A stretch of 64,000 nt of DNA from Candidatus Omnitrophota bacterium. Lineage in GTDB: Bacteria > Omnitrophota > Gorgyraeia > Gygaellales > Profunditerraquicolaceae. The DNA lies in NCBI GenBank assembly GCA_030693145.1, contig JAUYBI010000049.1, positions 7,305 to 71,304 of the forward strand, in the 5' to 3' direction. A program made the translations under genes and the position numbers. The notes under the pieces were generated by a model. It saw only the letters and a program-made list of their open reading frames with translations, made no database searches and was not told the DNA's origin. Within the stretch, counting starts at the first letter, position 1. The number at the start of each line of letters is the position of its first letter. Positions 24,574-51,131 of the stretch are shown here, piece by piece.

Positions 24574-24645
24574 GCCGAGATAGCTCAGTGGTAGAGCGCG
24601 GCCCTGAAAAGGCCGGCGTGGGGGGTCCGATTCCCTCTCTCGGCA
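24574..24645 (+). tRNA. tRNA-Phe (GAA)
   Basis: Cloverleaf: acceptor GCCGAGA/TCTCGGC, D-arm GCTCAGTGGTAGAGC, anticodon stem CGGCC/GGCCG, loop CTGAAAA (anticodon GAA), T-arm; discriminator A. Confidence 0.85.
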
Positions 24646-26665: not shown

Positions 26666-26742
26666 ATCTTGTAATAAGACTATTAAGCAATATTCGCTAT
26701 ATAAAGATTCGAGGATTGATACTTGAAGTAAAGGAGATTAGA

Positions 26743-28749
26743 GTGACGATTAATTTTAAAGAGAGTGCAAGTTTTATTTGGAGCATGGCCGAACTTTTGC
26801 GCGGAGACTATAAGCAGTCTGAATACGGCCGGGTGATATTACCGCTTACGGTTTTGCGACGTCTGGATTGTGTGCTTGAGCCAACTAAGGAAGCAGTGTT
26901 GTCATATTTGCCACAAACTAAAGGATTATCGCCAGAAGCCGCCGAGACGGTACTTAAGAAAAAAGCGAAGTTATCTTTTTACAGTAAGAGCAAGTTTGAT
27001 TTTCAGAAACTGGTTGCTGATCCCAATGACATAGCCGCTAACCTAAGAAATTATATCAACGGTTTTTCTAAGAACGCCCGCAGTATTCTGGAACATTTTA
27101 ATTTTAATGATCATATCGAGCGGCTTGATAAATCGAATCTTTTGTATATGATCGTCAAGCGTTTTGCCGAAGTTGATCTGCATCCAGACAAGATTCAAAA
27201 CATTGAGATGGGCTATATCTTTGAAGAGCTTATTCGCAAGTTCGCCGACCTTTCCAATGAAACAGCCGGAGAACACTTTACGCCACGCGAAGTTATCCGG
27301 CTTATGGTCAATATTCTCTTTCTGAACGATAAAGATGTTCTTACTAAAAAAGGTATCGTAAAAACTCTATACGATCCTGCATGTGGAACTGGAGGTATGC
27401 TCTCTGTAGCTGAAGAATATCTTCGTGAACTTAACCCCGGTGCAGATTTACGCGTATTCGGTCAGGAGTTAAATCCTGAGTCTTATGCTATTTGTAATTC
27501 TGACATGCTCATTAAGGGGCAGAATACGGAGCATATTAAGTTTGGCAATTCCTTCACGCAAGATGGACTTAAAGACGAAAAGTTTGACTATATGCTGAGC
27601 AATCCTCCCTTTGGTGTGGAGTGGAAAAAGATTGAGGAGGAAATTACCAAGGAATACGAGAAGTTGGGTTTTTCTGGGCGTTTTGGCGCTGGACTTCCGC
27701 GTATCAGTGACGGCTCTTTTCTATTCTTACAGCACATGATTTCTAAGATGCGACCGGAGAATGGTGGCGCGCGGCTAGGGATAGTTTTCAACGGTTCACC
27801 TCTTTTTTCGGGTGGGGCCGTAAGTGGTGAAAGTGAAATCCGTAAATGGATTATTGAAAATGATATGCTCGAAGCGATTATTGCGATGCCGGATCAACTT
27901 TTCTATAACACCGGCATTTCGACTTACATTTGGATTGTTACGAATCGTAAAGAGAAGGAACGCAAAGACAAGATTCAGTTTATCAACGCGGTTGAGTCTT
28001 TTAGTAAAATGCCCCGTAGCCTTGGGAATAAACGAAATGAAATTAGTGATGAGCATATTACTGAAATTACCAAGATTTACGGAGAATTTAAGGAGTGTGA
28101 ATACTGCAAAATATTTCCTAACGAATATTTTGGCTATACGCGCGTAACAGTGGAAAGGTCGCTTCGGCTTAATTTTCAGGTTTTAAAGGAACGGATTGAG
28201 CGGCTTGATGAGCAGCCAGGACTAATTAATCTGGCTAAATCCAAGAAGAAAGGCAAAGAAGGATTAAGGGAAATCGAGGAAGGCGAAAAACTGAAAAAAG
28301 ATATCAAGGTGATGTTATTAACTTTCGATTCTAAGCTTTATAGGAACCGTGAGAAGTTTATTGAGGTTATCGAGCAAGTTGCAGAAAAATCAAGGCTTGA
28401 GATTAAAGCGCCTGTGATGAAGGCGATCCTTGAAGCTCTATCCGAGCGAGATGGAACGGCAGATATCTGTATGGATAAAGACGGGAATCCGGAGCCGGAT
28501 ACTGATCTGCGGGATTATGAAAACATTCCACTTATGGATAATATTGAGGATTATTTCAAGCGCGAAGTTTTGCCTCATGTGTCTGACGCGTGGATGGACA
28601 GGAGCAAAGATAAAGTCGGCTATGAGATAAATTTTACCAAGGAGTTTTATAAATACAAACCGCTAAGATCACTGAAAGAGATTCGCAATGATATCCTCGC
28701 ATTGGAAAAAGAAACCGAAGGGCTAATGGGGGAGGTTTTGAAAGACTAA
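26743..28749 (+). CDS. hsdM: type I restriction-modification system methyltransferase subunit HsdM
   Basis: HsdM N-terminal domain (FIWSMAELLRGDYKQSEYGRVILPLTVLRRLD), motif I DPACGTGGML, motif IV NPPF; GTG start 26743 after AAGGAG RBS. Confidence 0.9.
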   Translation: MTINFKESASFIWSMAELLRGDYKQSEYGRVILPLTVLRRLDCVLEPTKEAVLSYLPQTKGLSPEAAETVLKKKAKLSFYSKSKFDFQKLVADPNDIAANLRNYINGFSKNARSILEHFNFNDHIERLDKSNLLYMIVKRFAEVDLHPDKIQNIEMGYIFEELIRKFADLSNETAGEHFTPREVIRLMVNILFLNDKDVLTKKGIVKTLYDPACGTGGMLSVAEEYLRELNPGADLRVFGQELNPESYAICNSDMLIKGQNTEHIKFGNSFTQDGLKDEKFDYMLSNPPFGVEWKKIEEEITKEYEKLGFSGRFGAGLPRISDGSFLFLQHMISKMRPENGGARLGIVFNGSPLFSGGAVSGESEIRKWIIENDMLEAIIAMPDQLFYNTGISTYIWIVTNRKEKERKDKIQFINAVESFSKMPRSLGNKRNEISDEHITEITKIYGEFKECEYCKIFPNEYFGYTRVTVERSLRLNFQVLKERIERLDEQPGLINLAKSKKKGKEGLREIEEGEKLKKDIKVMLLTFDSKLYRNREKFIEVIEQVAEKSRLEIKAPVMKAILEALSERDGTADICMDKDGNPEPDTDLRDYENIPLMDNIEDYFKREVLPHVSDAWMDRSKDKVGYEINFTKEFYKYKPLRSLKEIRNDILALEKETEGLMGEVLKD

Positions 28750-28750
28750 A

Positions 28751-29215
28751 ATGCTCATTCTTGTAAAAAGTTATCTGTGTCTATTTAATAAAAATTGGTT
28801 TTTGGATGAATTGGTAAACGTTGATTTTAAGAGAGAATTACTTTCGAATTCTGGATTGCGAGAAGCTAATGAACAACATAAGAATGAAGCTAAAGATCGT
28901 CTGCGTCGCGATACAATAGAACGAAGAAAACTGCTTTATCAGAAAATGATACTTTCATTAGGCTGGATTTTGTTGGCAGCAGTCTCGGGATTGTTAATAT
29001 CGGTGTTCGGCTTCCATAGACAAATTTTTTATGAGAATAAATATGTCGGATTGTTATCTATATTTTGTTTTTCTTGGGCAACGCTTGCTCGCTTAGGATG
29101 GCAAGGGCAAACGTGTGCAGGAGATACTATTTTTGAGAAACTTGATGAAAATATTTTCTGGGTTTTGTATTTTTTTGGCACCCTATTTGGTGCTTTTTCA
29201 ATAATTGCGTCTTGA
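28751..29215 (+). CDS. small 3-TM membrane protein embedded between hsdM and hsdS
   Basis: 154 aa; charged N-terminal ~65 aa then three hydrophobic helices; starts 2 nt after hsdM stop. Confidence 0.5.
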   Translation: MLILVKSYLCLFNKNWFLDELVNVDFKRELLSNSGLREANEQHKNEAKDRLRRDTIERRKLLYQKMILSLGWILLAAVSGLLISVFGFHRQIFYENKYVGLLSIFCFSWATLARLGWQGQTCAGDTIFEKLDENIFWVLYFFGTLFGAFSIIAS

Positions 29216-29219
29216 TTAT

Positions 29220-30530
29220 ATGAAATATTATCCGGCATATAAAGATTCTAAAATTGAGTGGTTTCCTTCGATTCCTAAGCATTGGCAGCTTATTAAGCTA
29301 GGAAGAATAGGCCGTTTTTCTGCCAGCGGTATTGATAAGAAAAGCGATGCAAGCGAACTTCCCGTTAGGATGGTAAATTATACAAATGTTTATGGTAATT
29401 CTAGTTTAGAGATTAAGTTTTCGGAAAATTTAATGGAAACGACAACAACGTTAGAAAAAGTTAGGGAGCATAGTTTAAAAAAAGGAGACATGGTGTTTAC
29501 TCCAAGTTCTGAAACAGCCGAAGATATTGGTTTATCGGCTGTGGTTACAGCAGAGCTTCGTAATACTGTTTATAGCTATCATTTGATTCGTCTAAGGACT
29601 GGTGAGCGTTATAATCTGAATTTAGGGTTTAAGAAATATTTTTGCAATGTTCATGAAGTTTTGAGTCAATTTAGCAAAGCGTGTAAGGGAACGACGCGGC
29701 AAATCTTAGGTCGAGATGATTTTAAAGATATATTAATTCTGCTCCCACCAGTAAGCGAACAGAAAATAATTGCTGAGTATCTTAATCGCAAGGCCGCGCA
29801 GGTTGATGACTTGATTGCCAAAAAAGAGCGGATGATTGATCTTATCAAGGAGGAGCGGGCGGCGATCACCAATCGAGCAGTAACTAAAGGGCTTGATCCC
29901 AATGTCGAGATGAAAGATTCTGGCATTGAGTGGTTAGGCAAAATGCCGAAGCATTGGCAGATGAAAAGATTGAAATATTTAGTGTCCTTAGTTAATCAGC
30001 CGATTGAAGAGGTTAATGGAGCGGAACTGCGTATTGACTTAGAAAATCTTGAAAGCTGGACTGGAAAAACAATTGAGCTTGAGAGCCAAGATCAAAACAA
30101 CGAAGGAATGAAAAGTTTTGCTCCAGGGGACGTGTTGTTCAATAAATTGCGGCCATATCTTGCCAAAGTATATCGAGCAAAAAATTGTGGTGTTTGCGGC
30201 GGGGAACTCTTGGTTCTGCGTCCGACCACATTGATCGATCCGGATTTTCTTTTCTGTAGAGTCCTTTCAAGTGCTTTTATAAATGTGGTTGATGGTTCGA
30301 CCTACGGATCTAAAATGCCGAGGGCAAGTTGGGATTTTATTGGGAATCTCATTGTTCCATTTCCGAGCAAACCCGAACAAATTAAGATCGCAGAATACCT
30401 GCATCAGACCTTACAGAGAATGGATATAATTTTACAGAAATTGGGTTCGGAAATTGAATATTTAAGAGAATACCGCACCGCTTTGATTTCAGAAGTGGTA
30501 ACGGGAAAGATTGATGTGAGGGGGTTTTAG
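29220..30530 (+). CDS. hsdS: type I restriction-modification system specificity subunit HsdS
   Basis: Two target-recognition domains separated by conserved central/distal repeats (LPPVSEQKIIAEYLNRK ... PFPSKPEQIKIAEYLHQ). Confidence 0.85.
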   Translation: MKYYPAYKDSKIEWFPSIPKHWQLIKLGRIGRFSASGIDKKSDASELPVRMVNYTNVYGNSSLEIKFSENLMETTTTLEKVREHSLKKGDMVFTPSSETAEDIGLSAVVTAELRNTVYSYHLIRLRTGERYNLNLGFKKYFCNVHEVLSQFSKACKGTTRQILGRDDFKDILILLPPVSEQKIIAEYLNRKAAQVDDLIAKKERMIDLIKEERAAITNRAVTKGLDPNVEMKDSGIEWLGKMPKHWQMKRLKYLVSLVNQPIEEVNGAELRIDLENLESWTGKTIELESQDQNNEGMKSFAPGDVLFNKLRPYLAKVYRAKNCGVCGGELLVLRPTTLIDPDFLFCRVLSSAFINVVDGSTYGSKMPRASWDFIGNLIVPFPSKPEQIKIAEYLHQTLQRMDIILQKLGSEIEYLREYRTALISEVVTGKIDVRGF

Positions 30531-30532
30531 TC

Positions 30533-31507
30533 ATGAAAGATATAGTTAAGTCATTAAGAAATTCAGTATTTACAACATTTTTTTACATCTTGCTTGATTA
30601 TTATAAGAAACAACGTTCATGGTTTGATTATCTAATCATTTTTTTGATATTGAGTACAACTCTATTATTAGTTTCTTTAACTTGGAACGTAATTAAACAA
30701 TGGTATCTAGACTGGAGAAGAAAACACTTTCCTCGCGTGGGAATACTTAATGGGTCTATTAAATCTCGAACTGTCGAGCATCCATGCAGAAGACAGTGGA
30801 GTGAGATGACGCCGAGCATGTGGTTTGAACAATTAAAAAGGGATTTCAAGAAGCCCTTACTTAGCGAATTGATTCTAATACCAACGTCAGAAATTGACAA
30901 TTCTTGGAGTATAGTTATTAATCCGTTCGGAGAAAACTATCCCGAAGAAAATCCGCGTTTACTAAAAACTTTTAAAGAGATCTGTGAGTATATTAATAAA
31001 GGAGGAATATTTGTAGTAACTGGTAGCGCATTCTTTTATAATCAAAATACCTTTGCTACACCCCAGTCCGAGAGAGTAATAACGCATGTTATTGAAGGTG
31101 TGCAGTATCTTGAATATTCTGTTCTCACTCAAGAGTTTGGAGTTAAATATACAGGTAATATACATGATATTCAGAATAAAAAGGTGCTTTTTGAAGAACC
31201 GGTTGAGATAAATGTTACTCAAACGAGCGACATGGTTAAGATGTGGGGAGATTTATTGCAAGGGATTAACCATTTGAAGAGATTTAGGGCAGCTACTAGC
31301 GAAACTATCGATTATCTTCCTGTTATTATACAGGAAGGTGAGGATCAGTGGAATAAAGGCAAAAAAATATTTCCCATAGCTTTAATTCGATATGGCAAGG
31401 GGGCTTTGATACATGCAGGGTTGCACATACATTCATATAGTTGTGATGAATTTTTAGTTTTGAAGCGTTTAATCTTGAAATTGGCGAAGAATAAGTTTAC
31501 ATTCTGA
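30533..31507 (+). CDS. hypothetical protein with N-terminal TM helix, embedded between hsdS and hsdR
   Basis: 324 aa; TM LIIFLILSTTLLLVSLTW then ~270-aa soluble domain with no motif I can assign. Confidence 0.5.
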   Translation: MKDIVKSLRNSVFTTFFYILLDYYKKQRSWFDYLIIFLILSTTLLLVSLTWNVIKQWYLDWRRKHFPRVGILNGSIKSRTVEHPCRRQWSEMTPSMWFEQLKRDFKKPLLSELILIPTSEIDNSWSIVINPFGENYPEENPRLLKTFKEICEYINKGGIFVVTGSAFFYNQNTFATPQSERVITHVIEGVQYLEYSVLTQEFGVKYTGNIHDIQNKKVLFEEPVEINVTQTSDMVKMWGDLLQGINHLKRFRAATSETIDYLPVIIQEGEDQWNKGKKIFPIALIRYGKGALIHAGLHIHSYSCDEFLVLKRLILKLAKNKFTF

Positions 31508-31530
31508 TAATATAAATTAGGAGTTGCAAG

Positions 31531-34500
31531 GTGGGTATAACTAACGAAAAAGCTTTTGAAGACGCTATCGAACAAAGTTTGATGGATCCTGGCGGATATG
31601 TAAAAGGCGATCCGAATAATTTTAATCGGGATCTGGCGATTGATCAAATGGTTTTGTTTCAGTTTATCAAGGATACCCAGAAGAATGTTTGGGATAGCTT
31701 GGTGGCTATCCATGGCGCAGAGGTCGAGAAAAAGTTTTTATATCGCCTTAATCAAGAGCTGGATGCGCGCGGGATGCTTGATTGTTTGCGCCACGGATTC
31801 ACTGATTATGGCAAGAAATTCACACTCGCCTATTTTAAGCCAGTCAGCAAATTAAACCCGGAAACCCAAAAGTTATTCGATAGAAATATCCTCACCGTTA
31901 CCCGGCAGGTTCATTACAGCATCAAGGATGAAAGCTCGATTGATATGCTTTTGTCTGTCAACGGCCTTCCTGTGGCTACTATTGAATTAAAAAATCCATT
32001 TACCGGTCAGGATGTGGATGACGCCAAACGGCAATATAAATATGACCGCGACGAACGTGAGCTTTTATTTCAGTTTAAGAAGCGTGCCTTTGTCCATTTT
32101 GCTGTAGATACAGACGTCATTTACATGACCACGCGCCTTCAGGGGAGCAAGACAAAGTATCTGCCTTTCAATAAGGGCTATAACAAAGGTGCCGGGAATC
32201 CCCCGAATTCAAGCGGCCATAAGACATCGTATTTATGGGAAGCGGTCTTGGTAAAAGACAGCTGGATGGATATCTTAGGAAGATTTTTGCTTTTAGAAGT
32301 TGAGGAAAAGACGTTTGATGGTAGAAAGTTCAAGATTGAGACAATGATATTTCCACGTTATCACCAACTTGATAGCGTCCGGAAGCTTTCTTCCGATGCT
32401 CTCGCAAATGGAGCAGGAAAGAATTATTTAATTCAACATAGCGCTGGGAGTGGCAAGAGCAATTCTATCGCATGGCTTGCATATCATTTGGCTAGTCTTC
32501 ATGACAAAAACGATAAGAGGTTATTTGATTCGGTGATTGTGATCACCGATCGTATCGTTCTTGATAAACAATTACAAGATACGATTTATCAATTTGAACA
32601 TAAGTCTGGAGTGGTTGAAAAAATTGACAAAGATTCCGCCCAGCTGGCTCAGGCACTCACCAGTGGAACAAATATTATTATCACTACACTTCAAAAGTTT
32701 CCTTTTGTTTTGGATAAGGTTGGGGCACTGCCTAAGCGAAATTACGCGGTTATCGTAGATGAGGCGCATAGTTCGCAGGGTGGCGAATCCGCTAAAAAGA
32801 TGAAAGACGTTCTTTCGGCGGTTGATAAAATCGAGATCGTATCCGAGAAAATCGATGAGGATGACGATATAGAAGATGAAATCCGTGAATCTATGCTTAA
32901 ACGTGGCCCCCGGACGAATTTAAGTTTCTTTGGTTTTACGGCAACCCCAAAAGCAAAAACGCTGGAGTTTTTCGGGCAAAAGGGCATAGATGGAAAACCA
33001 CAACCATTTCATCTTTATTCTATGAGGCAGGCGATCGAAGAAAGATTTATTTTTGATGTTCTTGAAAACTACACCAGCTATCAAACTTTTTTCCAGTTAT
33101 CCAAGAAGATTGAAGACGATCCGAATATGAATAAGAAAAAGGCCGCTTGTGCGATCGCGCGTTTTTTAACACTACACCCCTATAACTTGGCACAGAAAAC
33201 CGAAGTCATGATTGAGCACTTCCGGCAGATCACTTTGAAAAAGATTGGCGGTAAGGCCAAGGCGATGGTCGTGACCGCTTCTCGCGAACACGTGGTGCGA
33301 TATAAACATGAGTTTGATCGGTATTTGAAAGAGAAAGGCTATAAAGATATCAAAGCTCTTGTGGCCTTTTCGGGTACAGTGCTTTTGGATGGTATTCCTC
33401 CGGAATATACCGAACCGGGAATGAATGGTTTTGGCGAAAAAGAACTGCCCCAAAAGTTTGCTACATCCGAATATCAGATTTTGCTTGTTGCGGAAAAGTA
33501 TCAGACCGGCTACGACGAGCCACTTTTACATACCATGTATGTGGACAAGCGGCTTGACGGCGTCAAGGCTGTGCAGACCATGAGCCGGTTAAATAGAACG
33601 TGTCCGGGGAAGGAAGATACTTTCATTTTGGACTTCGTTAATAAGCGCGAAGATATATTAGCGGCGTTTCAGCCGTATTACGAGCAGACACAGTTAAGCG
33701 ATGTTACGGATCCAAATAAGCTTTATGATCTCAAGACCAAACTGGATTCGTTTAAGGTGGTTTATCAATCAGATATCGATGCATTCTGTGCCGTATTTTT
33801 CAGGAATAAAGAATTACAGACGAAGCGCGAGCATGCTCAATTGAATTCAATAGTGGATGTGGCGGTTGAGCGGTTCAAGGCAATTGAAAAAGATGAGCAT
33901 AAAGAAGATTTTGCCAATACGCTGGGTGTTTTTGTTCGCTTGTACGCGTTTTTGGCGCAGATTATGCCATTTCAAGATATTGAACTTGAGAAATTCTATG
34001 CTTATTCCCGACTATTGTTGAAAAAACTTCCGGGGCCTGATGGTGGAGAAAGATATCATTTTGGTGATGAAGTCGCTCTTGAGTATTACCGCTTGCAAAA
34101 AATAGTTGATGGTAAGATTCAATTGCAAAAGGATTCAGGTGCGGCCATTGATCCTATTTCAGAAGCTGGGACGAAGAAGGATAAAGAAGAATACGCTTAC
34201 TTGTCAGAGATAATAAAGTTTTTAAATGACCGGTTTGGAACTGATTTTACCGAAGCTGACAAGCTATTTTTTGATCAGATAGAAGAAGAGATGGTTATGG
34301 ATGAGAAGTTGGGTGTTCAGGCTAAGGCTAACACAATTGATAATTTTAAATATGGATTTGATGACGTTTTTATTGCAAAACTCGTTGAGCGAATGGACCA
34401 GAATCAGGATATTTTTAACAAAATTATGGATGATAAAGTTTTTGCGGCAGTGGTGAAGGATTATTTATTAAAGAAGGTTTATGATCGTTTAAATAAAGAT

Positions 34501-35016
34501 AATAGTGGTTCGGCGGAAGGCATTTTATTTTTTAAGGATGTGATTACGAATGGAGATATTGATGATAATCGTAAATACATAAATTTTCTGCCGGTGTATT
34601 CCTTGCAGGCAGTAGCGACGTCTTTTAAAGAACAATCAACTCCTGAAGTTATTGGTTGGAAACCGATTAGCGGTCGGAAGATCAGCAAAGAAATGTTTAT
34701 TGCACAGGTAATAGGTAAATCTATGGAGCCGACTATTTCGGACGGGAGCTGGTGTTTATTTCGGTTTGAACGCGGAGGATCTCGTAATGGATTAGTGGTG
34801 CTTGTTGAGTCGCGTTTGGTTGCTGATCCTGAAACCAATCAAAAATTTACAATTAAACGTTACAAGAGTGAAAAGGAAGATCTTGGTAACGGTCAGTGGA
34901 GGCACAAAAAAATTATTTTATCCCCTGACAATAAAGATTTTAAGGATATTGTTCTTGAAAATATATCTGGGGAAGATTTTCGAGTTGTGGCAGAGTTTAT
35001 AGAAGCTTTTAAATAA
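31531..35016 (+). CDS. hsdR: type I restriction enzyme endonuclease subunit HsdR with C-terminal S24 (LexA-like) peptidase domain
   Basis: N-terminal PD-(D/E)XK nuclease (VATIELKNP), SF2 helicase motifs (QHSAGSGKS Walker A, VIVDEAHSS DEAH box, YQTGYDEP), then C-terminal ~130 aa with GKSMEPTISDGSWCLF ... FTIKRYK matching the S24 Ser/Lys dyad context (GDSMEPTI.DGD ... VKRL in LexA). Confidence 0.8.
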   Translation: MGITNEKAFEDAIEQSLMDPGGYVKGDPNNFNRDLAIDQMVLFQFIKDTQKNVWDSLVAIHGAEVEKKFLYRLNQELDARGMLDCLRHGFTDYGKKFTLAYFKPVSKLNPETQKLFDRNILTVTRQVHYSIKDESSIDMLLSVNGLPVATIELKNPFTGQDVDDAKRQYKYDRDERELLFQFKKRAFVHFAVDTDVIYMTTRLQGSKTKYLPFNKGYNKGAGNPPNSSGHKTSYLWEAVLVKDSWMDILGRFLLLEVEEKTFDGRKFKIETMIFPRYHQLDSVRKLSSDALANGAGKNYLIQHSAGSGKSNSIAWLAYHLASLHDKNDKRLFDSVIVITDRIVLDKQLQDTIYQFEHKSGVVEKIDKDSAQLAQALTSGTNIIITTLQKFPFVLDKVGALPKRNYAVIVDEAHSSQGGESAKKMKDVLSAVDKIEIVSEKIDEDDDIEDEIRESMLKRGPRTNLSFFGFTATPKAKTLEFFGQKGIDGKPQPFHLYSMRQAIEERFIFDVLENYTSYQTFFQLSKKIEDDPNMNKKKAACAIARFLTLHPYNLAQKTEVMIEHFRQITLKKIGGKAKAMVVTASREHVVRYKHEFDRYLKEKGYKDIKALVAFSGTVLLDGIPPEYTEPGMNGFGEKELPQKFATSEYQILLVAEKYQTGYDEPLLHTMYVDKRLDGVKAVQTMSRLNRTCPGKEDTFILDFVNKREDILAAFQPYYEQTQLSDVTDPNKLYDLKTKLDSFKVVYQSDIDAFCAVFFRNKELQTKREHAQLNSIVDVAVERFKAIEKDEHKEDFANTLGVFVRLYAFLAQIMPFQDIELEKFYAYSRLLLKKLPGPDGGERYHFGDEVALEYYRLQKIVDGKIQLQKDSGAAIDPISEAGTKKDKEEYAYLSEIIKFLNDRFGTDFTEADKLFFDQIEEEMVMDEKLGVQAKANTIDNFKYGFDDVFIAKLVERMDQNQDIFNKIMDDKVFAAVVKDYLLKKVYDRLNKDNSGSAEGILFFKDVITNGDIDDNRKYINFLPVYSLQAVATSFKEQSTPEVIGWKPISGRKISKEMFIAQVIGKSMEPTISDGSWCLFRFERGGSRNGLVVLVESRLVADPETNQKFTIKRYKSEKEDLGNGQWRHKKIILSPDNKDFKDIVLENISGEDFRVVAEFIEAFK

Positions 35017-35115
35017 TAATGAATAATCGTTTCTAATTTTTTTAAAAAACAGTGAAGTAAAGGGAAAACAATTTCTAGTTTCTACAGGTGTGCGAAGGAT
35101 TAAACAGGAGGAGAA

Positions 35116-36273
35116 ATGGCAGATATAAAAAGAGAGTATGAAGGAGATCATGAAGTAGAAGAAGAATATTTGGTTCTTGAATATGATATTACAGCTTCGC
35201 CAAATGATTTTAATATAAAAACCATATTTGATTTTATAGAATCTGGAGCTGTTATCATACCGGAATTTCAAAGGAATTATGTATGGGATATTAGGCGAGG
35301 ATCAAAATTTATCGAATCCCTTATTATGAACTTGCCTGTACCGCAAATTTTTCTCTATGAATCAGGGAGAAATAAATTCAAAGTTATTGATGGACAGCAA
35401 AGATTAATGACAATTTATTATTTTATGAAAAAGAGGTTCCCTTGGAAAGAAAAAAGAATGGAGCTGCGGCGTATCTTTGATAAAGCAGGGAAAATTCCTC
35501 CTGAGGTGTTAGCTGATGATAAATTCTTTTCAGATTTTAACCTCAAATTAGAAAGTAGCGTTGAGGGAGTGACTAGTAGATTAAATGGTTTGAACTATGA
35601 TACGCTCAAGGATTACAAAACCTCTTTTGACCTACGTACTATTAGGAATATTATTGTTAAACAAACTAAGCCAGAAGATGATGATTCTTCTATGTATGAA
35701 ATATTTACAAGATTAAACTCTGGTGGGATTAATTTAACTCCTCAAGAAATTCGTGCGTGTATGTTTCATTCTGATTTCTATGATACATTACATAAAGTTA
35801 ATTTAGATGAGCGTTGGAGAAAAATAATTGGCTCGAAAGATCCAGATCTTCATTTAAAGGATGTAGAGATCCTATTAAGGAGTTATGCTGCGTTAATAAA
35901 AGGAGAAAACTATGCTCCTCCCATGACAAAGTTTCTTAATACATTTTCAAAAGAACGTGAAAAGGAAACTCGTAAAAGCTTAGATTATTACGAAAAATTA
36001 TTTTATTCATTTTTGGATTATTGTTCAGAACTTCGAGAAAAATCTTTCTTTGGTAAAACTGGAAAGTTTAATATTTCTCTTTTTGAAGCTGTTTTCTATG
36101 CAATTTGCGAAAAATCTTATAAAAAGCATTCTTTAGTTGAGGGGAAGATCGAGGCAATAAAATTAAATAGATTAAAAAGAGACAAACAGTTTACGGGTGC
36201 TTCTCAAATGCGTTTATCAAGTAAACAAAATGTCGCTATTCGCCTTGATCGCGCAAGGAAGATTATATTATAA
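35116..36273 (+). CDS. DUF262 (ParB/Srx-like nuclease domain) protein
   Basis: PEFQRNYVW and KVIDGQQRLMTIYYF (DGQQR) motifs diagnostic of DUF262. Confidence 0.8.
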   Translation: MADIKREYEGDHEVEEEYLVLEYDITASPNDFNIKTIFDFIESGAVIIPEFQRNYVWDIRRGSKFIESLIMNLPVPQIFLYESGRNKFKVIDGQQRLMTIYYFMKKRFPWKEKRMELRRIFDKAGKIPPEVLADDKFFSDFNLKLESSVEGVTSRLNGLNYDTLKDYKTSFDLRTIRNIIVKQTKPEDDDSSMYEIFTRLNSGGINLTPQEIRACMFHSDFYDTLHKVNLDERWRKIIGSKDPDLHLKDVEILLRSYAALIKGENYAPPMTKFLNTFSKEREKETRKSLDYYEKLFYSFLDYCSELREKSFFGKTGKFNISLFEAVFYAICEKSYKKHSLVEGKIEAIKLNRLKRDKQFTGASQMRLSSKQNVAIRLDRARKIIL

Positions 36274-36282
36274 AATTTTCAT

Positions 36283-36798
36283 ATGGACAATTCCCCAATT
36301 GATAAGTTATATTTTGAAACTAAGTCGATATTGGATTTTCTTGAAAGAAATAATGAATTATCATTTAAAAGTGATATTGATAATATGTTTAAAAGATATT
36401 TATTATTGGTTTCAGGAGGTTATTTTGAAGAATGCATAACGAATATTTTACTGAATCTTGTATCTAAAAACGTAGATAACAAACTTATCATTGAATTTTT
36501 AAAGAATAAAGGTATTAAAAGACAATACCATACTTATTTTGATTGGGAATCTATTAATGCAAATCAATTCTTTAGTTTGTTTGGGGAAGAATTCAAGGAA
36601 AAGATGAGTCAAGAAGTTAATAATAAAGAAACATTGAAGGTTTCGATAAAAGATTTTATACAAATAGGGCATGCTAGGAATTTACTTGCTCATAAAAATG
36701 CTACTTTAGTTAATCTAGATAAGACTTCGGAAGAAACATATGCTCAATACAAGAGTGCAGAGGAGTTTATTAGTTTTCTTCAAGAGCAACTTTTATAA
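36283..36798 (+). CDS. HEPN-domain protein (Abi/RiboL-PSP-like)
   Basis: 171 aa alpha-helical; C-terminal GHARNLLAHKN = R-[N]-x3-H HEPN catalytic motif. Confidence 0.55.
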   Translation: MDNSPIDKLYFETKSILDFLERNNELSFKSDIDNMFKRYLLLVSGGYFEECITNILLNLVSKNVDNKLIIEFLKNKGIKRQYHTYFDWESINANQFFSLFGEEFKEKMSQEVNNKETLKVSIKDFIQIGHARNLLAHKNATLVNLDKTSEETYAQYKSAEEFISFLQEQLL

Positions 36799-36823
36799 AT
36801 TTTAAATTTAACAAAAATAATGC

Positions 36824-36852
36824 TTGACAGATGTAATTACATATGGTAACAT
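36824..36852 (+). promoter_or_regulatory. promoter TTGACA-17-TAACAT overlapping palindromic operator TGTAATTACA
   Basis: TTGACA 36824-36829, TAACAT 36847-36852, perfect 10-bp palindrome 36832-36841 in the spacer; upstream of XRE gene. Confidence 0.55.
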
Positions 36853-36878
36853 GGGACTAAGCTAAGATAAGGGGAAAG

Positions 36879-37073
36879 ATGACGACGATTGATAGGCAAA
36901 AATTCGCGAGAGCAATTAAGAGGTATAGAGAAGAGAAGGATCTTACTCAGAAGGAATTAGCGGGTAAGTTGATGACTACAACTACAACAGTTGCGCGGTG
37001 GGAATTGGGGATGAGCGTGCCGAAACAAGACAGGGTGATTCAGGAGATAAAGGCATTAGGTATTAACTGGTAA
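36879..37073 (+). CDS. XRE-family HTH transcriptional regulator
   Basis: 64 aa; LTQKELAGKLMTTTTTVARWELG HTH_3 pattern. Confidence 0.75.
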   Translation: MTTIDRQKFARAIKRYREEKDLTQKELAGKLMTTTTTVARWELGMSVPKQDRVIQEIKALGINW

Positions 37074-37099
37074 ATTTTTTTGTCCTTTGAGATTACAAG

Positions 37100-37109
37100 T
37101 GTAATTACA
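37100..37109. promoter_or_regulatory. second copy of TGTAATTACA palindromic operator
   Basis: Identical 10-bp palindrome between XRE gene and xis-like gene. Confidence 0.5.
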
Positions 37110-37135
37110 TACGATATAAGGAAAGGAGTGGCGAC

Positions 37136-37315
37136 ATGGATAGATTATTAACGCCGGAGGAAGTTTGTCAGAGGTATAGCATTAAAAAGAATACGTTTTA
37201 TCAGTGGACTTCAAAAAATTTAATACCATACCTCAAAAGAGGCGGCTTACGTTTTAAGGCGGATGAGCTTGAGAAATGGGAGAGCGGAGAGGTAAACAAT
37301 GTTAAATTAATATGA
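37136..37315 (+). CDS. excisionase-family DNA-binding protein (Xis/AlpA-like)
   Basis: 59 aa (below ORF-track cutoff): MDRLLTPEEVCQRYSIKKNTFYQWTSKNLIPYLKRGGLRFKADELEKWESG; RBS AAGGAAAGGAG; stop overlaps integrase ATG (ATGA). Confidence 0.65.
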   Translation: MDRLLTPEEVCQRYSIKKNTFYQWTSKNLIPYLKRGGLRFKADELEKWESGEVNNVKLI

Positions 37316-38505
37316 CCTATCGTTTAAGGCAATTTAACCTTAAGAGCGTTGTTAAGCGGGGTAAATTTTTTGAGATCCGCTATACTAACCCTCGTACCCA
37401 AAAAAGGGAATATTATAAGTTAGGCATAACACATGATGAAGTAAAAAGGAACCTGCCTGAATTTAATAGAATGTACGCCGGCCTTAAAAGGCAGGTTTTT
37501 TCTTATAGGATTACTGTCAGTCAAGGTGTGCAATCGTGGCTTGAGCAAAAAAGAACTGAATTAAGTAATAAGAAAACCGTGGTTCGGTATGAAGAAATTA
37601 TGAATAATTTCGCGGAATTTCTTAAAGATAAATTCCCGGCTTTAGGATATATGGATGAATTAGCGCAAAAACACTTTGAGGAGTTTAAAGAATACCGCAA
37701 AAATATTAAAGGGAAAAAGGAGAGGACGGTCAATTTTGAATTAGATATGTTAAGTAACTTATTCAAACGTTTGATGGAAAAAGATTATCTTAATTATAAT
37801 CCTTTATCGAAAGTTAAGAGATTGCAGGAACCATATAAAGAAGAGCGTTGGTTTACTGAAGAGGAGATTCGGAAAATTTTTGAAATAGCCAAAAGTGAGA
37901 AAACAAAGATAAATTGGTATGTTATATTCGCTACCTATTATTATACAGGTATGCGTAAAAGGGAATTGATGTCTCTCAGGAAGAAAGATATTGATTTTGA
38001 CAAAGGAATTATACTTATTCGGCACAAAGAGGGGTTTAAGCCGAAAACAGATAGGCCGAGGGCGATTCCTATTCATCCGGAGTTGGTGTCGATTTTGAGA
38101 TTGCTTCGGCCCTTCGGGCCTCGCAATGACACTGGGGACAGTGTTTGCAATGACGAGGGGAAAGTCGTGTCTTGTAATAACCAGGGAGACGGAGATTTTG
38201 TATTTGTTAATTCAAGGGGTAAGCCGTTTTCTAACGACGCGATAAGGCAGAAGTTAAAGAAGTTGTGCCGCAAGGCAGAGATAAAGCCCGGTAAGTTACA
38301 TAGCTTTAGGCATACTTGGACCGCTCATTCTATTATGAAAGGCTGTCCTTCAGATGTGGTTCAGGCGATCGGCGGCTGGAAAGAAAAAGATATGATTGAA
38401 AGATACAAGCACCTTGCGCCGGATTATATGGCTGATATTTATAAGAAAACAATTTTTTTAGGCAGCCAGGCTGAAGATAAAGGCTCTTTAAAGGCTCAAG
38501 ATTAA
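37312..38505 (+). CDS. tyrosine-type site-specific recombinase/integrase
   Basis: N-terminal SAM-like domain, C-terminal catalytic R...HSFRHTWTAH...GGW...RYKHL (R-H-R-Y) motifs. Confidence 0.85.
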   Translation: MTYRLRQFNLKSVVKRGKFFEIRYTNPRTQKREYYKLGITHDEVKRNLPEFNRMYAGLKRQVFSYRITVSQGVQSWLEQKRTELSNKKTVVRYEEIMNNFAEFLKDKFPALGYMDELAQKHFEEFKEYRKNIKGKKERTVNFELDMLSNLFKRLMEKDYLNYNPLSKVKRLQEPYKEERWFTEEEIRKIFEIAKSEKTKINWYVIFATYYYTGMRKRELMSLRKKDIDFDKGIILIRHKEGFKPKTDRPRAIPIHPELVSILRLLRPFGPRNDTGDSVCNDEGKVVSCNNQGDGDFVFVNSRGKPFSNDAIRQKLKKLCRKAEIKPGKLHSFRHTWTAHSIMKGCPSDVVQAIGGWKEKDMIERYKHLAPDYMADIYKKTIFLGSQAEDKGSLKAQD

Positions 38506-38847: not shown

Positions 38848-39096
38848 TTTGTTTCACCTCCTCTTAAGATAAAAAAAAATCCGCAAAGCATGGTTATTTT
38901 TTGTTGCTGCTTTGCGGTTTATACGTGTTACTAATCAATTTCTTTGTTTCTCCTCTAGACTGATCTTATGTAATAAATATATCATGAATTGTCAATTTGT
39001 CAACCCTTTTTCCAATTCTAAGCGAGTAATTGACTATTATCCAGGAATTGGTATAATGTTGAAAAATTGCCGAGTAAGATATTATTGCCGATGTAG

Positions 39097-39169
39097 CTCA
39101 GTTGGTAGAGCAGGACTTTCGTAAAGTCAAGGTCGGTGGTTCGATTCCACTCATCGGCTTAAGTTTAGT
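39097..39169 (+). tRNA. tRNA-Thr (CGU)
   Basis: Acceptor GCCGATG/CATCGGC, D-arm GCTCAGTTGGTAGAGC, anticodon loop TTCGTAA (CGT), T-loop TTCGATT, discriminator T. Confidence 0.75.
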
Positions 39170-50285: not shown

Positions 50286-50380
50286 ATAAATTAATAAATT
50301 TTTTATACAAATAAGTGATATAATATATCTGTTCTTTAAAAAGTTTCGCGGGGTGGAGCAGCCTGGTAGCTCGCAAGGCT

Positions 50381-51016
50381 CAAATGGATACAAAACTCAA
50401 AGCAGATATTGCAGAATCAGCTGTAACAACTGAGCTTCTTAAAAGAAGCTTTAGGGTGTTACAACCTATAGGAGATCGGCTAGCCTACGATTTAGGAGTA
50501 GATCTTCAAGGTAGGTTGTTGCGCATACAGGTGAAGAGTGCTTGGTTTAACGCCAAAGATAATTGCTATGTTGTTGATGGGCGTAGAACTAAGACAAATC
50601 GCCGGCGTATGTTAAGAAAGCACTACAGCGCTGAAGATTTTGATTTTGCAATTATTTACCTTGCTGATTTGCAAGTGTTTTATGTTATGCCTGTAGCAGT
50701 TTTTTCTAGCTATGGAAGCACAGTAACATTGATAGAAAAAATTAAAAGGCAGCGTAAACCTAAATCAGCAGAGTATAGGGAGCGTTGGGATTTGTTATCC
50801 GATGGGCTCTTCAGCCGGTAACGGTTGAAGGATAACCTGTCAAATTCGGTGAAGCCTTAATTTGCAAAGGTAATACCGAGCCAAGTTCGCCAATATTTGT
50901 GGCGAAAAGGTGTAGAGACTAAACGGCAGGGACCCGCCATAGGATTTTGGCGGGCCAAGATATAGTCCAGACTACGAATTCACTATTTGTGAAGCAGCGC
51001 AAGCTGAAGTAGTAAG
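50381..51016 (+). other. group I (IC3-like) self-splicing intron in tRNA-fMet anticodon loop
   Basis: 5' exon ends in U, insert ends in G (GAAGTAGTAAG). 3' ~195 nt carries bacterial tRNA group I core motifs GTCAAATTCGGTGAAGCCTAA, CCGAGCCAAG, AAGGTGTAGAGACTAAACGGCAGGG as in the Azoarcus/cyanobacterial tRNA introns. Confidence 0.75.
50384..50821 (+). CDS. intron-encoded PD-(D/E)XK-family homing endonuclease (I-Ssp6803I-like)
   Basis: 145 aa ORF filling the 5' part of the intron. E11, D36, Q49-V-K51 match the E/D/QxK catalytic constellation of I-Ssp6803I from the Synechocystis tRNA-fMet intron. Confidence 0.55.
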   Translation: MDTKLKADIAESAVTTELLKRSFRVLQPIGDRLAYDLGVDLQGRLLRIQVKSAWFNAKDNCYVVDGRRTKTNRRRMLRKHYSAEDFDFAIIYLADLQVFYVMPVAVFSSYGSTVTLIEKIKRQRKPKSAEYRERWDLLSDGLFSR

Positions 51017-51093
51017 CATAACCTTGAGGTCGTCCGTTCAAATCGGGCCCCCGCAACCATGTAAATCTCTCGAACTTTAGATTGAGAGATAAA

Positions 51094-51131
51094 AATAGCC
51101 CTGATTAGCTTTGCTAGCCAGGGCTATTTTT
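51094..51131 (+). terminator. rho-independent terminator after tRNA-fMet
   Basis: ATAGCCCTG-loop-CAGGGCTAT followed by TTTTTAT. Confidence 0.7.

Follow-up and report, generated by a model that had tools for sequence, protein, structure and literature searches.

An Omnitrophota initiator tRNA gene split by a putatively mobile, Synechocystis tRNA-fMet-type group I intron with an I-Ssp6803I-type endonuclease gene

We analyzed a 64,000-nt stretch (hereafter the window) of contig JAUYBI010000049.1 from a Candidatus Omnitrophota bacterium, in which a forward-strand initiator tRNA gene is split by a predicted group I intron carrying a homing-endonuclease open reading frame (ORF). Direct reading placed the 5' half of the tRNA, CGCGGGGTGGAGCAGCCTGGTAGCTCGCAAGGCT, at 50347-50380 and the 3' half, CATAACCTTGAGGTCGTCCGTTCAAATCGGGCCCCCGCAACCA, at 51017-51059, with a gap of 636 nt (50381-51016) between them. 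The 5' exon covers tRNA positions 1-33 and ends with U33; the 3' exon opens with the CAU anticodon, closes with an encoded CCA and covers positions 34-76. When the exons were ligated in silico, a 77-nt tRNA-Met(CAT) was called, and its anticodon, C1xA72 mismatch, A73 discriminator and encoded CCA identify it as a tRNA of the initiator type. An earlier note on this DNA had read the same two initiator halves (C1:A72, CAU) 636 bp apart, and in this it was right. It had also described a GGG/CCC anticodon stem, which was a misreading: the stem is CAAGG/CCUUG, in which G30:C40 and G31:C39 are G:C pairs but A29:U41 takes the place of the third canonical one. The same stem with A29:U41 is widespread in metagenomes, well outside Omnitrophota, and one 77-nt sequence was found unchanged on dozens of contigs without the eno-ftsB synteny described below (L087-L206). 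Because initiator-type tRNA genes without an intron often have this stem, on at least 120 contigs, the "three G:C pairs" rule seems, from these sequences, to be often relaxed among environmental bacteria.

ARAGORN with introns allowed recovered a split tRNA with outer coordinates of exactly 50347-51059. The label that it assigned, tRNA-Leu(CAA) with an intron at the eukaryote-style position 37/38, was rejected in favor of 33/34, since the mislabel arises because this mode forces the intron to 37/38. No further tRNA-CAU was found in the 64-kb window by ARAGORN or Rfam, which gave only a tRNA-Phe (24574) and a tRNA-Thr (39087), so that this is the only initiator tRNA of the window, as had been supposed. 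That splicing would be essential to the host cell, as the note had reasoned, goes beyond what 64 kb can show, but it is plausible, because about 90% of the intron-bearing tRNA genes in complete bacterial genomes are without an intron-less twin (Nakagawa et al. 2025, preprint). According to the tRNAscan-SE 2.0 paper, fMet tRNA genes can be hidden by such introns.

For comparison, relatives of the endonuclease were collected with one genome per species. A relative was present in 358 species genomes; the taxon lists and the counts of ~58 and 17 loci below refer to the best 80 of these, metagenome-assembled genomes (MAGs) carry their taxonomic labels as given, and the trees are quick neighbor-joining trees. 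The intron boundaries were the same in 66 related introns, all of which kept CT before the intron, G at its end, CATAA after it and a guide sequence of GGG followed by C or T. In the window, T (50380) directly precedes the insert and G (51016) is its last nucleotide, as first noted. The Rfam group I intron model RF00028 (Intron_gpI) matched 50784-50989 with 69.2 bits (E 1.8e-15), above the gathering score of 50 bits, and gave 62-77 bits in eight relatives, all above the cut-off. The group I core proposed from the sequence was thus borne out. Of the core motifs quoted for it, the first was one letter off and reads GUCAAAUUCGGUGAAGCCUUAA, while the conserved core itself held in both the Rfam match and the covariation analysis; the ribozyme portion is longer than the ~195 nt first estimated, at ~215 nt (50802-51016).

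The two 5' hairpins of the Rfam alignment, fitted onto the end of the ORF, were replaced by a comparative assignment of P1 and P2. The 5' part was defined from the relatives because the generic model forces these hairpins onto the ORF end, though P3-P9 fit it well. In the ORF-less relatives, the intron starts with CA(A/G), a few bases and (A)UGGGC(U/G), followed by a GNRA-capped hairpin, and the guide sequence lies 4-8 nt past the 5' splice site. The same arrangement of AUGGGCU and hairpin occupies 50802-50830 of the window. By reading, the candidate internal guide sequence AUGGGCU (50802-50808) is complementary to the ligated exons GCU/CAU. The predicted P1 consists of G30.U50808, G31-C50807, C32-G50806, U33.G50805, intron C1-G50804 and A2-U50803, and the predicted P10 of C34-G50804, A35-U50803 and U36-A50802. 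The P2 hairpin, CUUCAGCCG-GUAA-CGGUUGAAG (50809-50830), has a GNRA loop and showed compensatory changes at 9/9 pairs across the 66 introns.

The catalytic core (50836-51013) comprises P3 to P9b, which were drawn by hand on the window and projected onto the alignment: P3 (50836-41/50925-30), P4 (50845-51/50874-80), P5 (50855-58/50867-70), P6 (50881-82/50909-10), P6a (50886-92/50900-06), the pseudoknotted G-binding helix P7 (50915, 50917-20/50964-68), P8 (50933-39/50948-54), P9 (50971-75/51009-13), P9a (50979-83/50989-93) and P9b (50995-98/51003-06, with a GCAA loop). To test this hand-drawn fold from P2 to P9, the 66 related introns were aligned with plain MAFFT and its pairs were scored on them, with 3' partners slid by 1-3 columns as controls. 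Standard pairs were formed in 93.1% of cells compared with 29-43% in the slid controls, a measure that is flattered because the structure was drawn from one alignment member. The counts of compensatory changes are free of that bias, and both-side changes occurred at 43/61 pairs (698 cells). The covariation score was 0.449, whereas slid controls gave 0.112 at most, and the observed values were reached by 0/500 shuffles. P6 and P7 were invariant, P2, P6a, P8 and P9a were free to vary yet stayed paired, and the loops L2 and L9b were nearly always GNRA. This comparative evidence identifies the insert as a group I intron, whose conserved P3-P9 core, with the P3/P7 pseudoknot, is maintained by covariation.

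The intron contains an ORF of 145 aa (50384-50821, forward strand) of the I-Ssp6803I/PDDEXK_5 homing-endonuclease family. It covers intron nt 4-441, the final six codons running through the guide sequence into the 5' strand of P2; because it starts at intron nt 4 and ends inside this strand, it lies in the P1 loop. The protein matched the I-Ssp6803I structure, PDB 2OST, with an E-value of 2.8e-46 over residues 2-138 (~55% identity) and the Pfam family PF11645 (PDDEXK_5) with an E-value of 1.4e-42 (145.4 bits; cut-off 26.1). No NCBIfam model matched the endonuclease; NCBI records label its relatives as "group I intron-associated PD-(D/E)XK endonuclease". D36, Q49 and K51 were invariant in 14/14 aligned sequences and E11 was present in every natural sequence. 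These four residues we take to be catalytic, following the earlier note and what Zhao and colleagues reportedly described in 2007. The I-Ssp6803I-like ORF with an E11/D36/Q49xK51 pattern that the note had proposed was therefore recovered by both matches and by the residues themselves. The dN/dS ratios were 0.07-0.16 against eight relatives, and the endonuclease is, on these estimates, under purifying selection.

Two observations concern database sequences of this family. The protein in PDB 2OST has Q at position 11, where all natural homologues seen, including a 95%-identical protein (L086), have E; Q11 is probably an inactivating mutation made for crystallization. Many database entries (P0114, P0116 and other proteins of 155-210 aa) are N-terminally extended by a stretch ending in RGVEQPGSSQGS, which is the tRNA 5' exon translated in frame (CGC GGG GTG GAG CAG CCT GGT AGC TCG CAA GGC TCA), since gene callers read through the unannotated exon.

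When metagenome contigs were scanned for the uninterrupted site GGTAGCTCGCAAGGCTCATAACCTTGAGGTC, it was found on at least 120 contigs, and in ~18 of these intron-less contigs, window-type enolase and FtsB/DivIC genes lay just upstream. In L111 and L205, the uninterrupted tRNA gene was identical to the predicted ligated exons at 77/77 positions. Aligned with the window, both were 100% identical and continuous over 50345-50380 and 51017-51059, with 50381-51016 absent. L111, whose Eno and FtsB are 86.9% and 83.9% identical to those of the window, gave an ordinary Rfam tRNA match with no intron. The intron was absent from the eno-ftsB-linked tRNA gene in L111, L205, L186, L188 and others and present in L001, L002 and L026. 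The intron is thus present or absent at one and the same locus, since relatives with the same eno-ftsB neighbors carry an uninterrupted tRNA gene of identical sequence.

The intron-less alleles delimit the insert except for a CA repeat: the intron and the 3' exon both begin with CA, which makes the junction ambiguous, as the note had remarked. The repeated CA is the usual mimicry between the P1 extension and P10. In L038 and L043, the intron begins with TGGAA. As the intron there starts with T, C34 must come from the 3' exon, and comparison of the sequences places the splice junction between U33 and C34, the earlier preference over 34/35 or 35/36. The published site of tRNA-fMet introns is likewise 33/34 (Nakagawa et al. 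2025, preprint).

These results bear directly on whether the locus might be a dead tRNA pseudogene with a decaying insertion, or an assembly artefact. Standard tRNA finders speak for such a reading, as neither standard ARAGORN nor the Rfam tRNA model called the gene in the window scan. Against it stand exons that are 100% identical to those of intact alleles, an invariant catalytic core with helices kept by compensatory changes, an intact ORF under purifying selection and the same layout, with the ORF within a tRNA-fMet intron, in ~58 of the 80 loci, which are independent assemblies. We regard a pseudogene or artefact as hardly credible.

The closest homologues of the endonuclease were encoded in Candidatus Omnitrophota MAGs, with identities of 74-94%. 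The best 80 genomes were mostly Omnitrophota and also included MAGs labeled Deltaproteobacteria, Patescibacteria, Margulisiibacteriota, Melainabacteria, Cyanobacteria and Bacteroidota, the last including cultured Arcicella. The order eno-ftsB-tRNA-fMet was kept in more than 50 intron loci of divergent Omnitrophota, over a range of enolase identity of 60-92%; the window and the Omnitrophota MAG locus L002 shared 92% enolase identity. In the neighbor-joining tree, the window protein grouped with those of L026, L001, L002 and L003, deep in an Omnitrophota-dominated clade, and Cyanobacteria and Bacteroidota formed a separate clade. Many MAGs titled "uncultured Planctomycetia" or "Planctomycetales" (L010, L011, L014, L017, L021, L026, L027, L029, L030 and others) showed the Omnitrophota eno-ftsB-tRNA-fMet synteny and clustered among Omnitrophota in the endonuclease tree; these titles are probably coarse or outdated labels.

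It could be argued that the intron/endonuclease pair reached this bacterium by a recent one-off lateral transfer from cyanobacteria: the endonuclease is 55% identical to I-Ssp6803I, a 2012 review calls close homologues of I-Ssp6803I generally cyanobacterial, and among 4,934 complete genomes, tRNA-fMet introns bearing a homing-endonuclease gene were reported from only two, both Cyanobacteriota (Nakagawa et al. 2025, preprint). However, relatives occur in 358 species genomes, the best 80 being mostly Omnitrophota, the window protein is 74-94% identical to many Omnitrophota proteins, and it lies deep in their clade, apart from that of Cyanobacteria and Bacteroidota. A recent cyanobacterial origin is, in our view, highly improbable. 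The note had envisaged a lateral occurrence in a non-cyanobacterium; the host is indeed non-cyanobacterial, but an isolated arrival from cyanobacteria did not stand. As judged from the tree and gene order, the element has long resided in Omnitrophota, with exchange inside the phylum.

A different arrangement was found at 17 of the 80 loci (L003, L045, L049, L051, L056, L057, L058, L060, L063, L065, L067, L070, L071, L073, L076, L077 and L078), where the tRNA-fMet gene has a short ORF-less intron (202-325 nt) and a free-standing I-Ssp6803I-like gene lies downstream of the same tRNA, usually 60-330 nt past it (in L071, for example, the tRNA at 2150-2447 and the endonuclease at 2501-2920). These loci include cultured Arcicella, Saprospiraceae, one cyanobacterium and Margulisiibacteriota. 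Free-standing relatives of the endonuclease, with identities of 50-64%, were also present on five IMG/VR viral contigs. In four of them (L081 2284-2782; L082 3001-3500; L083 3001-3495; L084 3001-3497), the gene stops 4-9 nt before an intron-less tRNA-Met(CAT), once within an array of 11 tRNAs; in the fifth (L085), the available DNA stops within the endonuclease gene. Genes adjoining the viral copies match phage families (DnaB-like helicase, anti-repressor Ant and HNH endonuclease). No relative of the endonuclease was found by tblastn against 50,697 GenBank phage records. The viral copies could serve as vectors of spread, or they could represent intron-less homing.

The presence of intron-plus and intron-minus alleles, together with strong purifying selection on the endonuclease, argues for ongoing mobility. 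We also considered that the intron splices while its endonuclease no longer drives homing, the element being fixed and vertically inherited or the protein co-opted, perhaps to assist splicing. Such a loss of homing would suit the occurrence of the intron at one eno-ftsB-linked locus across more than 50 divergent Omnitrophota genomes, the positive correlation between endonuclease and enolase identities (rho 0.40) and the strong purifying selection, which a co-opted protein would likewise show. Yet intron-less relatives are as close to the window as intron-bearing ones (Eno 86.9% in L111 vs 86.7% in L001), the two identities are discordant at L007 (Eno 63%, endonuclease 85%) and L036 (Eno 80%, endonuclease 69%), and the catalytic residues are all kept. 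In addition, ORF-less introns that are splice-competent by structure exist, and the protein is therefore unnecessary for the fold. On balance, we think it unlikely that homing has ceased.

A possible trace of homing specificity was seen at residue 113 of the endonuclease. In 76/76 loci, this residue (T113 in the window, codon 50720-50722) tracked the tRNA pair 29:41 (50376/51024), being T, S or N with A29:U41 and G or E with G29:C41 (E in I-Ssp6803I), and on a tree built without that column it switched about four times independently. The presumed target site of the window endonuclease is TCGCAAGGCTCATAACCTTGAGG; the site of the cyanobacterial or E. coli type is TCGTCGGGCTCATAACCCGAAGG. Pair 29:41 is part of this presumed target site, and the pattern points to co-evolution of cleavage specificity and anticodon stem; shared ancestry may account for part of it. 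A more far-reaching proposal, which we consider less likely than not, is that the Omnitrophota branch is an actively homing, phylum-wide element whose specificity has been re-tuned to the unusual anticodon stem of its hosts, with free-standing copies, among them those of phages beside intron-less tRNA-Met genes, as possible vectors between phyla. If true, it would amount to a naturally occurring series of changes in the specificity of a PD-(D/E)XK homing endonuclease and would contradict the view of bacterial tRNA introns as largely immobile.

Elements that may delimit the transcript were found on both sides of the gene. A candidate extended -10 promoter element, TGATATAAT (50316-50324, forward strand), recognized by eye, lies 22 nt 5' of tRNA position 1. 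Downstream of the tRNA, at 51095-51131 on the same strand, lies a terminator-like hairpin with the arms ATAGCCCTG...CAGGGCTAT and a T run behind it; its inner stem (51106-51126) and the T run came from a scan and its outer stem was read by eye. We propose that a precursor of ~713 nt would be transcribed from the extended -10 start, with transcription ending at the hairpin and T run near 51095-51131, and that the intron RNA would fold into a compact core of the tRNA-intron type. The guide at 50802-50808 would pair with exon G30-U33 over the ORF loop of ~420 nt, the U33.G wobble marking the 5' splice site. Free guanosine would attack after U33, and the released 3'-OH of U33 would then attack after the omega-G at 51016, this second step being aided by the short P10 (CAU with AUG) and probably also by pairing of the anticodon stem in the exons. 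The product would be a normal 77-nt initiator tRNA. Because the ORF extends across the guide sequence and into P2, ribosomes reading its end may compete with the folding of P1 and P2. The PD-(D/E)XK endonuclease encoded in the P1 loop would cut intron-less tRNA-fMet genes near the anticodon loop, and repair from an intron-bearing copy would spread the intron by homing.

Taken together, we assign a probability of roughly 0.85 to the reading that the initiator tRNA gene of this Omnitrophota bacterium carries a mobile intron like that of Synechocystis tRNA-fMet, a group I intron with an I-Ssp6803I-type endonuclease. Several points weigh against it. P1 has only 4-6 bp and must close over ~420 nt, and P10 has just 3 bp, of which A35-U and U36-A are not conserved among relatives. 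A consensus promoter scan found no sigma-70 site (no full -35/-10) before the tRNA, the extended -10 element having been picked out by eye only. A second initiator tRNA gene may exist elsewhere in the genome, as the search covered 64 kb. The identities of endonuclease and enolase are weakly correlated (Spearman rho 0.40, p 0.0125, n=39), and vertical descent and transfer are therefore not cleanly separable. Finally, the basis is wholly computational. The element is real and probably active. The sequences show its intron family, the conservation of its fold, its exact exon boundaries, the homology of its endonuclease with intact catalytic residues, purifying selection and its presence or absence at one locus; that it splices itself, which site it cleaves, that homing continues and that the cell needs splicing is what we infer.

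Elements of this type were described in 1994-2007, and the window brings no new mechanism, though the host phylum is new for the family in the literature searched. The result places the only known PD-(D/E)XK family of intron endonucleases firmly outside cyanobacteria. Completeness estimates and tRNA inventories of Omnitrophota MAGs are affected, because standard finders miss this initiator tRNA and ARAGORN with introns allowed reports a tRNA-Leu(CAA) instead.

Elsewhere in the window, between tRNA-Phe (24574-24645) and tRNA-Thr (39087-39159), lies a low-GC stretch (26716-38505; 32-39% vs ~43%) that looks like an integrated defence island. It contains a type I restriction-modification system (hsdM, hsdS and hsdR), a GmrSD-like gene and a HEPN RiboL-PSP gene, and its tyrosine integrase adjoins tRNA-Thr. 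The HsdR protein (1161 aa) has a C-terminal Peptidase_S24-like domain, which is unusual.

In the literature searched, no co-mention of Omnitrophota and group I introns was found besides one unrelated paper, and the main text of the Nakagawa et al. 2025 preprint does not mention Omnitrophota. Bacterial tRNA introns of subgroup IC3 are treated by Ikawa et al. 2000, as cited in PMC3984707. From its architecture, the window intron would belong to this subgroup. Like the IC3 introns of Azoarcus tRNA-Ile and Anabaena/Synechococcus tRNA-Leu, it has a small core in which the guide is directly followed by a GNRA-looped P2, P5 is short and P9 also has a GNRA loop, and it contains the conserved stretches GUCAAAUUCGG, CCGAGCCAAG and GGUGUAGAGACUA. 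Those introns differ in lying at 34/35 or 36/37 of other tRNAs and in being ORF-less, whereas the window intron lies at 33/34 and has an ORF.

In collaborative homing, a free-standing endonuclease acts together with an ORF-less intron, as with F-CphI and cyanophage psbA. The 17 related ORF-less loci resemble this arrangement; the window differs in having its ORF inside the intron.

The intron of Synechocystis sp. PCC 6803 tRNA-fMet and its endonuclease I-Ssp6803I were reportedly described in the primary reports of Biniszkiewicz and colleagues (in 1994), Bonocora and Shub (in 2001) and Zhao and colleagues (in 2007). It shares with the window intron the host gene and the 33/34 site, and the two are of similar size, with 655 nt and a 150-aa ORF in Synechocystis (PMC1995217) against 636 nt and 145 aa here. 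At the Synechocystis-type locus L086, whose protein is the one 95% identical to 2OST, the ORF lies in L1 and ends inside P2, as in the window, and I-Ssp6803I belongs to the same endonuclease family with the same catalytic residues as the window ORF. Unlike in Synechocystis, the host phylum is Omnitrophota and the protein is ~55% identical; the target anticodon stem has A28 and A29 with U41 and U42 in the window versus C28 and G29 with C41 and G42 in Synechocystis, and residue 113 of the endonuclease is T in the window versus E in I-Ssp6803I.

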